Shown piece by piece: positions 2,029-5,975 of a DNA stretch of 12,966 nucleotides. Where the stretch lies: UHGV virus genome UHGV-0144896. One strand, written 5' to 3'. The translations under genes and the position numbers were made by a program. The stretch's first letter is position 1. Each line of letters starts with the position of its first letter. Under the pieces are notes generated by a model. That model did no database searches. It was not told the DNA's origin and worked only from the letters and a program-made list of their open reading frames with translations. This DNA comes from a virus.

Positions 2029-3405
2029 TCATACGTCAGCCCCTTGTGCATATCGTCTGCCACGCGCAGCAGGTGCATTTGATGCTGTGCAAATCTGTCT
2101 GGCTTCATCCTGATCACATGCAACAAAGTGTCCGTTGCAGAACCGCTGGTAAACCGTACCAAGTGAGCCAAAACGGTTTTTCGTCACGATGATTTCAGCA
2201 AATGGCGCGGCGCTACTGTTCTCGTCATATACCGCTTCCCGATAGAGCATGATGATTGAGTCTGCGTCCTGCTCAATGCTTCCTGAATCACGCAAATCTG
2301 CGTTTGTCGGGCGTTTGTTTGGTCGCTTCTCAACATCGCGCGAAAGCTGACTTAGGGAGATCACAGGCGTTTTCAGGTCTTTCGCCATCGCCTTAAGGCT
2401 TCCGGAGATGTGAGCAATTGCGAGGTCGTTGCGATCTGCTTTCGGCTTCTCAATCAGGCCAAGATAATCCGCCATGATGAGTGACAGGTTTGGATTTTCC
2501 TGTTTGTGCCGTTCTGCGATTGAGCGTATTTCTTCGACCGATAACCGCGAGGCATCGACTACCCATACATCCAAATCTGCAAGCTGACTCATGCCGTTAG
2601 CAACGCGCGCCCAGCCTTCGTCATCCATCGATGCAGGATTTCGCAGCACGCTAACCGACATCCTCCCGGCGTTGGCAATACTTCGCTCTGCAATCTGCAA
2701 TGCGCTCATTTCCATTGAGAAAATCAATACCCCGCGCCGGACGTCAGAACCAGGAATAACGCGGCTTGCAACGCCTTCGGCAATCTTCAGCGCCAGTTCG
2801 GTTTTCCCCATACCAGGACGAGCAGCGATTATCACCAGGTCTTCCGCGTTCATCCCTCCGGTGATGGCATCAAGTTCTTCGATTCCGGTCTTCAGGGTAT
2901 CTGACTCTTTTCCGTTCCTCAGACGCCTGTCAAGCGTGTCAGTGTAGTCGGTGATGATTTCCCCTAACCGTACAGGTTTAACCTCGTCACGGGGCTTTCT
3001 GATGGCTGAAAGACGCTTTACAAGTTCATCCATCGCCTGACTTGATGCGTCGATGGTTCCGCTCTGAATTGGTTCACGCATTTCATCCATGATTTCCAGC
3101 ACCAGACGGCGGTGATAGTTATCCGCGACCATTCCGGCATATCCCTTCAGGTTTGCGGCACTCGGGCAGTTTTTGCTGGTCATCAGGATTGACGTGAAAT
3201 GCTCCTCTCCGCACGCCTCGGCAACCATCAGCGCGTCGATTAGGTTTCTGTTTCGCGCCTGTTTGCGGATAACCTCGAAGGCTTTCCGGTAGAGCGGAAT
3301 TGAAAACGCTTCCGGCTCAAGCGTTGCCAGAACGTCACTGGCAGTTGGTGTTAATCCACCAATCAGCAGGCCACCGATAACGCTCGCTTCGATATCCTGT
3401 CTCAT
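2029..3405 (-). CDS. Replicative DNA helicase, DnaB family (phage-encoded, P22 gene 12-like)
   Basis: 458-aa ORF. ATG at 3405 overlaps the O-like gene stop as ATGA. Contains a Walker A-like [17 protein letters not shown] and a Walker B-like hydrophobic stretch ending in D ([12 protein letters not shown]), plus an N-terminal DnaB-like domain. Lies directly after the initiator gene, as in P22-type replication modules. Confidence 0.85.
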
Positions 3406-4349
3406 GCAATCCCCCTGTCTGCAAACTTCCCTTCCCGTACTCCCGTTAACGAATCTTCCCTCAGCAGGTAATCAAAATCTGCCGTCCAGCCAGTGTCGTT
3501 GTCTCCGAAGTAAAACGGCTTGGCCTGATGTACAAACGCCCTGACATACGCTCTGAAACCGTCCACGTTTGGCGTTTTCAGTTGCGGGATGATTTTCTTC
3601 AGGCGGCGTTTGCGTTTCTCGTTGACCGCAACAGCGTGTGGCAGTCTGTCACCGACTTCGGTGTTGTAGGCGTTAAGGAAGGATTCGTAGTCGATGCGTT
3701 CTGCCTTGCGACGTTCAGGCTTAACCTGCCCATCGCCGCCCCCATTGGGGGGTAGGGGGGTATTATTTATATTCTTGTTAATACCTTCTTGTTCATGATG
3801 TGCGGTTGTTTGTGCGACATCATGTGCGGTTGTTTGTGCGGCATGTACTCTGAAAGCCGCGCCATTACTGGCTTCGTCATGTGCGGCATCATGTGCGGTT
3901 GTTTGTGCGGCTTCATGTGCGGGTGAATCGTCCATTTTTTGAGCATATTCATGGTAATTTGTGATGGTAATCACACGACCTTTTTGCTTCTCTCCATCAA
4001 TGGTGATCATCCCCTCTTTCACAAAAACCTGAAGCATCCGCTCAACCTGATCGCGGCTTGCTGGCTTGCCATGCCTGTCGCATAACTGAAGACCTAAATC
4101 AGCTGCTGTCACAACCAGTTGACCGGGTTGCAGATGCCATTCATGACCTTTGAAATTCGCTTTGTATGGCTTTCTGGCGGCATTCAGGAGAAGGTTTTCC
4201 CACAGGGTGCGAAGATAAACATCTTTCGCCCATGACTGTTTCAGAATGCTCCGGTACAACGGAATGTAACCAGTTTTCTGGTTCTCCATCCTGTTGCTCC
4301 TGCGCTCGTGTGCGGCGCTGAAATCGTAGATTTTTGCTGTGTTGCTCAT
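3402..4349 (-). CDS. Replication initiator protein, lambda O-like / P22 gene 18-like
   Basis: 315-aa ORF starting [10 protein letters not shown], similar to the lambda O N-terminus. The central region has repeated peptide segments ([27 protein letters not shown]) encoded by DNA iterons. Position is between cII and the helicase. Confidence 0.75.
3760..3925. repeat. Putative origin of replication: iteron array plus adjacent AT-rich tract inside the O-like gene
   Basis: At least four direct copies of a ~19-20 bp unit (catgtgcggttgtttgtgcg and variants; TGTGCGG core) lie between ~3795 and 3925. An AT-rich stretch (tattatttatattcttgttaatacc) and a G-tract lie at 3735..3795. Same architecture as lambda ori within O. 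Confidence 0.6.
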
Positions 4350-4351
4350 AA

Positions 4352-4624
4352 CTACCTGCCTTGACGAAAGACCTTAAGAACATCGTTAAACTGACTTACG
4401 GATATGTCTTCTTTGAGCAGCTTTTCCAGAAATGCGTTTGGAATGAACGTATATCCATCCTCTTTTGGTAGAGACGGGAGCAACGCCCTCGCCTCAGCCT
4501 TCAGAAGCTCAGTTCTGGCAACTTTCACAAAAGAGATTTGAGTTCTTTCATCAATGGAACGAAGGAAGCGCAAACGCTTAGCTTCTTTGTGTGTATCAGG
4601 TGGATTAAAGCCTTTGTTTCGCAT
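4352..4624 (-). CDS. Hypothetical protein (90 aa) between cII and the replication initiator
   Basis: Track ORF 4352..4789, trimmed to the ATG at 4624..4622 with a GAGG SD 8 nt upstream; the longer form would overlap cII by ~140 nt. Stop at 4352 is 2 nt from the O-like ATG. No family recognised. Confidence 0.45.
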   Translation of the reverse strand: MRNKGFNPPDTHKEAKRLRFLRSIDERTQISFVKVARTELLKAEARALLPSLPKEDGYTFIPNAFLEKLLKEDISVSQFNDVLKVFRQGR

Positions 4625-4646
4625 ATAATTACCTCGTTGGATGTTG

Positions 4647-4943
4647 TTAAAATTCCATCTGGATTTGTTCAGAACGCTCGGTTGCCGCCGGGCGTTTTTT
4701 ATTGGTGAGTCCATCAAGCGCATACTTAAAAGCCCTGCTAATCGGACTGATGTCTGATGCCATTCCGAAAGCACACAAGACCGAAGCAATAAATCTCCAG
4801 TCCGTTCTGCTTATCTTCGATTCATGACAGCCAATCATCTTTGCCAGACCGCGCTGGGTAAGCGTTGACAGGTTGATGAGTAAATCAGTTTCAGCGCGAT
4901 CAATTTCTCGCTGTGTTGGCTTGCTGTAGCTTGCTTGTGCCAT
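4647..4943 (-). CDS. cII: Transcriptional activator CII (lambda cII / P22 c1 homologue)
   Basis: 98 aa. C-terminus LTNKKRPAATERSEQIQMEF matches the lambda CII C-terminus from memory. Central HTH-like segment TQRGLAKMIGCHESKISR. AGGAAA SD upstream of ATG 4943. Confidence 0.8.
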   Translation of the reverse strand: MAQASYSKPTQREIDRAETDLLINLSTLTQRGLAKMIGCHESKISRTDWRFIASVLCAFGMASDISPISRAFKYALDGLTNKKRPAATERSEQIQMEF

Positions 4944-4976
4944 TTGTTAATTTTCCTATATTGATATTGAGTTATA

Positions 4977-5001
4977 GCGGCACACCCAATGGATTTGCCG
5001 C
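4977..5001 (-). terminator. Hairpin in the tR1 position (possible rho-dependent terminator)
   Basis: 6-bp perfect stem (gcggca / tgccgc) with a 13-nt loop between nutR and the cII start. No U-tract follows on the minus strand, so any termination would be rho-dependent as for lambda tR1. Weak call. Confidence 0.3.
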
Positions 5002-5011
5002 TGATGTTTGC

Positions 5012-5052
5012 TCACCCGGTTAGAGGTGAAAGGCCAGAACTGTTAAAGAGCA
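5012..5052 (-). promoter_or_regulatory. nutR site (boxA plus boxB hairpin), phi21-type
   Basis: Minus-strand boxA TGCTCTTTAACA (5041..5052) lies immediately downstream of the cro stop. It is followed by a hairpin tcacc-TCTAACCG-ggtga (5012..5029) that shares the CTAACCG loop with the nutL hairpin at 6160..6179. Confidence 0.55.
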
Positions 5053-5058
5053 ATTTGC

Positions 5059-5244
5059 TTATGCCGCTTGGCGGTAAGCACTTTCTTGATACTTCAGGGC
5101 GCCAGCTGTAACGATTTCCAATCGATAGGCGTCTTTCTCTGGGATAACTTCTTTCCACTGAGAGACTGCTGCATCGCTAATGCCTAGTGCTTTAGCAACA
5201 GCACGCTGGGTTCCGAAGTGGTCAATAACATCTTTTTTGTACAT
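5059..5244 (-). CDS. cro: Cro repressor, P22-type
   Basis: 61 aa, MYKKDVIDHFGTQRAVAKALGISDAAVSQWKEVIPEKDAYRLEIVTAGALKYQESAYRQAA. Near-identical to my recollection of P22 Cro. HTH QRAVAKALGISDAAVSQW. Divergent from the repressor gene. Confidence 0.85.
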   Translation of the reverse strand: MYKKDVIDHFGTQRAVAKALGISDAAVSQWKEVIPEKDAYRLEIVTAGALKYQESAYRQAA

Positions 5245-5324
5245 AGACTCGCTCCGAAATTAAAGAACACTTAAATTATCCACCAAAGGAATCTTAAGTC
5301 AAGTTTATTTAAGATGTCTTAACT
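5245..5324. promoter_or_regulatory. OR operator region with divergent PR / PRM promoters (P22-type operators)
   Basis: Three 18-bp sites fit the P22 operator pattern ANTNAAG-N4-CTTNANT: 5259..5276 (attaaagaacacttaaat, perfect palindrome), 5282..5299 (accaaaggaatcttaagt, one mismatch) and 5307..5324 (atttaagatgtcttaact). The last abuts the repressor ATG. Confidence 0.7.
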
Positions 5325-5975
5325 ATGAATACACAACTGATGGGTGAGCGTATTCGCGCTCGCAGAAAAGAACTCAAGATTAGGCAGGCTGCCCTTGGCA
5401 AGATGGTTGGCGTGTCTAATGTTGCTATTTCCCAATGGGAGCGATCTGAAACTGAGCCCAATGGCGAAAACCTATTGGCCTTAGCCAAGGCTTTGCAGTG
5501 CTCCCCTGATTACCTGTTGAAAGGAGAGGATAGTCTTTCAAACATTGCCTATCACAGCAGGCATGATCCAAGAGGTTCGTATCCTCTAATTAGTTGGGTA
5601 AGCGCAGGATGTTGGATGGAAGCTGTAGAGCCATATCATAGGCGTGCAATAGATAACTGGTACGACACAACGGTAGATTGTTCTGAAGACTCTTTTTGGC
5701 TCGATGTTAAAGGCGACTCAATGACTGCCCCGGCAGGACTGAGTATTCCTGAGGGGATGATTATTCTCGTCGACCCAGAAGTCGAACCACGTAATGGAAA
5801 GCTGGTAGTCGCCAAACTTGAAGGAGAAAACGAGGCGACATTCAAAAAGTTAGTTATTGATGCCGGTAGAAAATTCCTGAAACCACTCAATCCACAATAC
5901 CCAATGATTGAAATCAATGGGAACTGTAAAATCATTGGCGTTGTCGTTGATGCCAAGCTAGCAAACCTTCCTTAA
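5325..5975 (+). CDS. c2: Prophage repressor C2 (P22 c2-like), LexA/S24-type self-cleaving repressor
   Basis: 216 aa. N-terminal HTH (QAALGKMVGVSNVAISQWERSE) and a C-terminal S24 peptidase-like domain with GDSM (Ser) and a downstream Lys. Very similar to P22 C2 from memory. Confidence 0.9.
   Translation: MNTQLMGERIRARRKELKIRQAALGKMVGVSNVAISQWERSETEPNGENLLALAKALQCSPDYLLKGEDSLSNIAYHSRHDPRGSYPLISWVSAGCWMEAVEPYHRRAIDNWYDTTVDCSEDSFWLDVKGDSMTAPAGLSIPEGMIILVDPEVEPRNGKLVVAKLEGENEATFKKLVIDAGRKFLKPLNPQYPMIEINGNCKIIGVVVDAKLANLP

Follow-up and report, generated by a model that had tools for sequence, protein, structure and literature searches.

Comparative analysis indicates that the 90-aa open reading frame (hereafter, the ORF) lying between cII and an O-like replication initiator gene in the 12,966-nt stretch of viral DNA that we analyzed (hereafter, the window) is a functional protein-coding gene under purifying selection, and that it belongs genetically to the replication module rather than to the lysis-lysogeny (cII) module. 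We propose, at a little short of an even chance but as the best explanation overall, that it is a replication-module gene that is translationally coupled to O, falls under oop-type control, and encodes an accessory of the initiator or origin.

The early right (PR) operon occupies the minus strand of the window. Upstream of the ORF are cI (5325–5975, plus strand), a PR promoter predicted by promoter scan (5302–5275), cro (5059–5244, minus strand), and the immediate neighbor cII (4647–4943, minus strand; Pfam Phage_CII, E = 3.9e-36). Downstream, all on the minus strand, are the genes for the 315-aa O-like replication initiator (3402–4349; Phage_rep_O, E = 3.5e-15; phrog_345), a DnaB-type replicative helicase resembling P22 gp12 (2029–3405; DnaB_C, E = 9.5e-78; DnaB N-terminal domain, E = 4.4e-13), and NinB (1515–1973). 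Within the O gene (3794–3925), a CATCATGTGCGGTTGTTTGTGCG-type repeat occurs in five overlapping copies, presumably the origin iterons, which also encode a repetitive AQTTAHD segment of the O-like protein.

The ORF itself (4352–4624, minus strand) comprises 91 codons counting the TAG stop and specifies a 10.5-kDa, basic, helical protein with a pI of 9.99 (MRNKGF...VFRQGR; full sequence, MRNKGFNPPDTHKEAKRLRFLRSIDERTQISFVKVARTELLKAEARALLPSLPKEDGYTFIPNAFLEKLLKEDISVSQFNDVLKVFRQGR). Its Shine-Dalgarno sequence, GAGG (4632–4635, minus strand), stands 7 nt upstream of the ATG, and the block GGT.AATTATATGCGAAA around the Shine-Dalgarno sequence and start was the same in six diverged loci. The stop codon occupies 4352–4354 and is followed by 2 nt (TT) and by the ATG of the O-like gene at 4347–4349, whose ribosome-binding site, GGCAGG (4355–4360, minus strand), is homologous to the CAGGAG of lambda O and lies within the final codons of the ORF (Gly-Arg). 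This ORF/O junction, GGCAGGTAGTTATGAGC, was kept in 76 of 82 copies. A preliminary description of the ORF, made from the letters of the DNA, had given the same position between cII and the O-like initiator, the same GAGG, and a stop separated by 2 nt from the O-like ATG, all of which we confirmed, adding the strand (minus) that it had left unstated; the basic N-terminus that it reported was also borne out, with 8 K+R against 4 D+E in the first 30 residues. A 145-aa version beginning at TTG 4789 in a mechanical call, and the 120–164-aa versions found in databases, were rejected as over-extensions into cII because the diverged homologs all begin at the conserved ATG after GAGG.

Selection on the ORF acts at the protein level. 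Compared with copies 68–79% identical, it had a dN/dS of 0.06–0.20 (Nei-Gojobori), in pairs whose synonymous differences, at 0.52–0.85 per site, were near saturation. No in-frame stop occurred in five copies 68–100% identical, and all five other frames carried stops (1–9 each); the corresponding ratio in the other frames was ~1 or more, apart from 0.15–0.36 in one antisense frame that shares third positions. Both halves of the protein were constrained, with pN/pS of 0.33 for residues 1–53 and 0.19 for residues 54–90. The 82 full-length copies fetched were all intact; they fell into 18 haplotypes at the nucleotide level and 8 variants at the protein level, with third codon positions accounting for 12 of the 17 segregating sites. 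Among near-full-length members, the length of ~90 aa and the C-terminus were kept down to 51–63% identity. The low dN/dS, the frame that is open in all copies, and the stops in the other frames together indicate a real gene, and the low dN/dS and intact copies uphold the earlier proposal of a compact protein-coding gene in the PR operon that abuts the initiator gene.

A 2-kb query from the window (3300–5300) was 99.9% identical to Escherichia phage vB_EcoP_Kapi1, a P22-like Lederbergvirus, in which the ORF is Kapi1_024, labelled “hypothetical protein”. The Kapi1 record cites phrog_2519 and a CDD Phage_rep_O motif, and the ORF is not discussed in the Kapi1 paper. Residues 1–90 of the product matched positions 1–90 of the 90-position profile of phrog_2519, a family of unknown function (E = 3.4e-57); the product had no match in NCBIfam and none above threshold to any Pfam family. 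The description of the ORF as unrecognised is thus accurate with respect to named Pfam and NCBIfam families but not with respect to annotation, given that the gene already carries the label hypothetical protein from Kapi1 and PGAP and a place in PHROG 2519. The PGAP label was “hypothetical protein” in 29 of 30 E. coli rows among the matches listed.

The ORF was held by 57 phage records, including CUS-3, JEP4, HF4s, Gally, TL-2011a, and 48 Stx2a-converting phages, and by 279 of 5,426 complete E. coli genomes, with at least 80% coverage in 278 of the 279; one E. coli genome, H177, contained just 79% of it. Conservation of the ORF at the same position, which had been proposed as a check, was found, and the 82 intact copies and the coverage in E. 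coli give no sign of disruption. Full-length homologs 68–79% identical occurred in Scandinavium, Pseudescherichia, Salmonella, and metagenomes. A HMMER profile search of 1.84 billion representative proteins returned 15 matches, consisting of the family itself and two long repetitive proteins. Judging from these searches, the ORF family is genuine and very narrow, and it is restricted to enterobacterial lambdoid and P22-like prophages. In four database proteins (P0023, P0024, P0031, and P0011) the N-terminal part of the ORF was frameshifted or fused to other sequence (a Dam-like tail, a cII N-terminus, or a PF09306 protein); these probably come from recombination junctions or decayed prophages in E. 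coli genomes. A 2,692-bp record named ‘Staphylococcus phage SA 1298 Kay’ (OR850084.1) contained the ORF at 74% identity and the O-like gene at 63%, and is almost certainly a mislabelled or contaminant sequence.

The sequence around the start of the ORF has the features of an oop locus, namely an intrinsic terminator antisense to the cII 3′ end and a predicted promoter over the start of the next gene. The terminator hairpin (4671–4698) is identical to that of lambda. A perfect TATAAT on the plus strand (4624–4629) reaches into the start codon of the ORF and is a candidate for the −10 of Po, the oop promoter; the accompanying −35 is weak. The oop-like antisense RNA, with inferred ends at 4636 and 4703 (plus strand), would be ~68 nt long compared to 77 nt in lambda; it matches lambda oop exactly over the 3′ two-thirds and departs from it in the 5′ third, its predicted fold has a free energy of −22.5 kcal/mol (z = −3.4), and its 5′ end abuts the Shine-Dalgarno sequence of the ORF. 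Both the TATAAT and the block AATTATATGCGAAA were invariant across six diverged ORF-bearing loci, and a simple promoter scan gave no call for the candidate Po. A gathering-threshold search of the whole window against Rfam returned no family, so the oop assignment rests on identity with lambda.

Alignment with lambda shows where the ORF was accommodated. The two sequences are identical across the cII 3′ end and the oop terminator as far as the cII stop, and homology resumes at the ribosome-binding site and start codon of O (CAGGAGTCATTATGACAAATACAGCAAAAAT in lambda, CAGGTAGTTATGAGCAACACAGCAAAAAT in the window); the 22-nt spacer of lambda gives way here to an ORF-bearing segment of ~290 bp. Counting from oop, the first cistron is therefore the ORF in the window, as against O in lambda, and the oop 5′ end adjoins the Shine-Dalgarno sequence of each, CAAC being followed directly by GAGG for the ORF here and by AGGAG for O in lambda. 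As read from the lambda sequence, the −10 of Po likewise overlaps the ATG of O, and in the P22 record the oop promoter is annotated over the orf48 start.

The preliminary description had named as an alternative that this stretch is regulatory DNA alone (oop/PRE in its terms, oop/Po in ours), with no coding function. That reading would account for the oop terminator and the TATAAT, which coincide with or border the 5′ end of the ORF, and for lowered synonymous divergence in codons 1–8 (pS 0.29 vs about 0.7), which fits an overlapping oop promoter signal. However, the oop and Po signals touch just the first ~10 codons and so do not explain the ORF away, while the remaining ~240 nt show codon-position-specific constraint, and coding constraint extends over the whole length; we give a purely regulatory stretch almost no credence.

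A gene in this slot is not the departure from the known layout that the preliminary description took it to be. The lambdoid arrangement has been given as “cII-oop-orf-O-P” (Hayes et al. 2012, PMC3349717), with lambda naturally lacking orf48, which in P22 sits between oop and gene 18 (PMC3349717), and with homologues of orf48 and gp53 tabulated for other phages (Hayes et al. 2012, PMC3349717). The premise that cII or c1 is closely followed by O or gene 18 is correct for lambda, where we found no ORF in the slot, and incorrect for P22, where orf48 occupies it. In our comparison, P22 orf48 (48 aa, Pfam PF10872 DUF2740) and HK97 gp53 (53 aa, phrog_1331) each lay in the slot, overlapped the initiator start, and were followed after the initiator by a DnaB-type helicase gene. 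In three Cronobacter loci (L096–L098) and three Klebsiella loci (L093–L095), a DUF2740 gene and the Phage_rep_O gene behind it always shared 8 nt at the Phage_rep_O start, again with a DnaB-type helicase gene following; the link to the O start persists where a gene of 178 aa has come between cII and DUF2740. In a Yersinia phage the slot contained a KilAC antirepressor gene together with an ORF of 59 aa, and in a Klebsiella phage it contained a gene for a putative 265-aa regulator.

The ORF of the window falls into the same positional class, being located on the PR strand between the oop terminator and promoter and the O-like initiator, whose start it abuts. Like P22 orf48 and HK97 gp53, it is small, basic, and uncharacterised, comes after a cII-type gene and an oop terminator, has the −10 of a known or predicted oop promoter over its start codon, and abuts or overlaps the start of an initiator gene that precedes a DnaB-type helicase gene; unlike them, it carries an additional C-terminal module and runs to roughly twice their length. 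By these comparisons it is a third, longer family in a known slot, the family being new and the positional class known. We do not claim homology with P22 orf48/DUF2740, because a single-sequence comparison gave E = 0.0021 but a profile-profile comparison gave only E = 0.043, with a probability of 1.2% over 18 columns. A HKxxxRxRFLxS motif is common to the ORF family and the single P22 orf48 sequence (P = 0.002), none of 19 members of the ORF family matched Pfam DUF2740 at E ≤ 1, and HK97 gp53 had no visible similarity to the ORF. P22 orf48 is labelled ‘tail protein’ in RefSeq, as is PHROG 1913, which from the position of orf48 looks like an annotation error. The ‘orf48’ of the Silas et al. preprint is unrelated, a coincidence of numbering.

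The arrangement of signals suggests how expression of the ORF and of O might be connected. We propose that PR drives transcription of the ORF, that ribosomes enter at its own GAGG, and that those ending at its stop would reinitiate on O, making O synthesis dependent on translation of the ORF; the coupling is suggested by the GGCAGG of O within the last codons of the ORF and by conservation of the junction. The initiation region of the ORF would in turn be exposed to antisense pairing with oop RNA. With its Shine-Dalgarno sequence beside the 5′ end of oop RNA and the candidate −10 of the oop promoter over its start codon, the ORF appears to have taken the place that O has in lambda in oop control. 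Transcription from PR, coupling, and oop control are in our judgment more likely than the accessory function proposed below for the protein.

Much of this would also be seen if the ORF were a leader cistron, in which the act of translation brings ribosomes to O and places O under oop control while the protein itself contributes little. In favor of this are the conserved abutment of stop and start, with the ribosome-binding site of O inside the last codons of the ORF; the placement of three unrelated slot-ORF families (the ORF, DUF2740, and gp53) directly against or across the initiator start; and the oop 5′ end, which adjoins the Shine-Dalgarno sequence of the ORF exactly as it adjoins that of O in lambda. 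A pure leader would tolerate change, however, and the ORF is under purifying selection on amino acids over its whole length, strongest in the C-terminal module, with a length fixed at ~90 aa across near-full-length members of 51–100% identity. We consider it improbable that translation is all that the ORF contributes.

The preliminary description had suggested, at most as a guess, a regulator or accessory factor; comparison of loci assigns the ORF to the replication side of the operon. Across 80 viral contigs the ORF was 98–100% identical, and the adjacent cII was either the window allele (89–100%) or a lambda-like allele (40–44%); a near-identical ORF beside a diverged cII points to a mosaic boundary at the conserved block formed by the cII 3′ end and oop. 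A sliding identity profile contained three conserved islands, at the cII 3′ end with the oop terminator, at the ORF start, and in the first ~50–80 nt of O, the last of which was 83–100% identical in four of five diverged loci, including one (L003) with an unrelated O body, and was not seen in L088. The order cII, ORF, O-like initiator, and DnaB-type helicase was found in every locus examined (the window, L002, L003, L085, L086, L088, L099, and L024), with the ORF and O separated by a 2-nt gap in the window and overlapping by 4 nt in L088 and L099. In the phage collection, 57 records carried the ORF and 57 carried a full-length O of the window’s type.

What lies behind the ORF is nevertheless varied. 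At least three types of O origin-binding (N-terminal) domain followed it, as did helicases of several lineages, down to 31–37% identity with that of the window; Klebsiella and Yersinia phages had an O N-terminal domain 67–74% identical but other genes in the slot. Co-variation of the ORF with the O origin-binding domain was rejected because the ORF precedes at least three O N-terminal types. We conclude from these distributions that the ORF is attached to the start of the replication module without co-varying with a particular origin specificity.

The O-like gene behind the ORF had features of its own. Its first ~26 codons (4270–4349, minus strand) were unusually conserved at the nucleotide level, with 83–100% identity in four of five diverged loci, loci with another type of O body among them and L088 the exception, and with a pS of 0.37 compared to ~0.7 in the ORF. 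This block contains a conserved internal AGGAG-N7-ATG (Met21), which gene callers took as the O start in L085 and L086, and the opposite strand carries a degenerate CATAAC resembling lambda Po. The block may be a linker for recombination, a second start site, or an element acting in cis. The O-like initiator is also modular: in L024 and L050 (3273–5586), residues 1–165 match the O of the window, but an O C-terminal domain of another type comes together with a DnaB-type helicase of another type, a joint swap that would be expected if the two interact.

The linkage between the ORF and O could simply reflect adjacency, and the unrelated genes in the slot of other phages are what would be expected of an insertion site for accessory genes. 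The ORF might then be a ‘moron’-type gene in a permissive slot that acts on the host or on competing phages, through takeover, exclusion, or anti-defence, with no role in replication initiation. Slot contents do differ among lambdoid phages (orf48/DUF2740, gp53, KilAC with the 59-aa ORF, or the 265-aa regulator, with lambda empty), and the ORF family is narrow, lineage-restricted, and tied to no single initiator type. Set against this, the ORF is always at the O start, with the 2-nt gap or 4-nt overlap, and was never found elsewhere; it bears a consistent weak likeness to the initiator N-terminus; and it is predicted to be expressed from the early lytic PR operon, with no autonomous promoter-terminator cassette found, unlike typical morons. 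An accessory gene of this kind is in our view somewhat unlikely, though a serious contender.

The likeness to the initiator lies in the C-terminal module. Residues 55–88 matched positions 6–39 of the 95-position Pfam profile PF04492 (Phage_rep_O) at E = 0.01 and 16.8 bits, below the gathering threshold of 28.7 bits, and the O-like family phrog_678 matched the protein at E = 0.0056. The Phage_rep_O match recurred in the same register in 17 of 19 family members (best E = 5.2e-5). With hhalign, the family aligned to residues 1–110 of lambda O with ORF residues 54–88 on O residues 25–59 (E = 3.1e-4, probability 40%, 35 columns, 31% identity), and to the O family encoded beside the ORF in the same register at a non-significant E = 0.19. 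The pattern G-Y/F-x-x-I-P-N...L-S-x-x-Q-F...L of the lambda O-type N-terminal domain is shared by ORF residues 54–88, and an AF2 model (pLDDT 79) places a β-hairpin and two helices in this region, as would suit the opening part of such a domain. No initiators appeared among the HMMER matches from the 1.84 billion representatives, a sequence profile search of the PDB had zero matches at E ≤ 10, no fold relative of the protein was found, and tblastn of the C-terminal 39 residues against phages (E ≤ 10) returned the family alone. The ORF does not encode a complete winged-helix domain of ~95 residues, since the protein ends after profile position 39; compared with the Phage_rep_O domain it covers about one third, without the recognition helix and wing, and the product is a protein in its own right, 90 aa long, whose first 53 residues form an unrelated helical N-terminus. 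As a lead only, the C-terminal module is plausibly derived from the start of a lambda-type O winged helix (the strand and first two helices).

Such a derivation would also fit a decaying 5′ fragment of a lambda-type O gene that was stranded by recombination between modules and is open by chance and functionless. Residues 54–88 do align with lambda O residues 25–59, the ORF sits where O begins in lambda, between the cII stop and the Shine-Dalgarno sequence of O, and lambdoid genomes are mosaics with junction scars. A functionless remnant is hard to reconcile with dN/dS of 0.06–0.20 and the absence of stops and frameshifts across lineages in which synonymous sites are saturated, with 82 intact copies out of 82, or with persistence of the family in Escherichia, Salmonella, Scandinavium, Pseudescherichia, and others. 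On this comparative evidence, an origin as an O fragment is possible and present-day decay is excluded, which leaves the whole reading very unlikely.

Returning to the replication-module gene that we favor, we tentatively suggest, as a possibility about which we have considerable doubt, that the ORF protein is an accessory of the initiator or of the origin complex that acts via its O-like half-domain. The most conserved part of the protein (residues 54–88) is without a recognition helix and wing, and a partner-binding or modulating role would fit this better than DNA binding. More speculatively, and with little expectation that every element will prove right, we imagine a lambda-type initiator ‘half-domain’ that was exapted on a new helical N-terminus. 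It would bind the full-length O-like initiator, or the 26-residue peptide conserved at the N-terminus of that initiator, and adjust how the origin complex is built or how it passes to the phage DnaB-type helicase. Such a small protein would modulate initiation in trans, be specific to lambdoid modules that encode a helicase, be kept by coupling in constant proportion to O, and be restrained by oop antisense RNA. That the ORF occurs in front of three or more O N-terminal types, and of helicases from several lineages, argues against a close, specific interaction with the origin-binding domain.

Lambdoid and P22-like phages, Stx2a-converting phages among them, repeatedly carry small genes between oop and the initiator, all of them uncharacterised. 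Our findings add that one of them is under strong purifying selection and travels with the replication module, always before an O-like initiator and a phage DnaB-type helicase. A specialist would not be surprised by an already annotated small gene that forms a new family in a known positional class, but the ORF is a concrete and cheap genetic target in a tractable phage, Kapi1 of E. coli MP1. Should it have no part in replication, it would simply join the accessory genes already seen in this variable slot. Should it modulate initiation or O dosage, lambda/P22 replication control would gain a new component, with possible effects on induction and the propagation of Stx phages.
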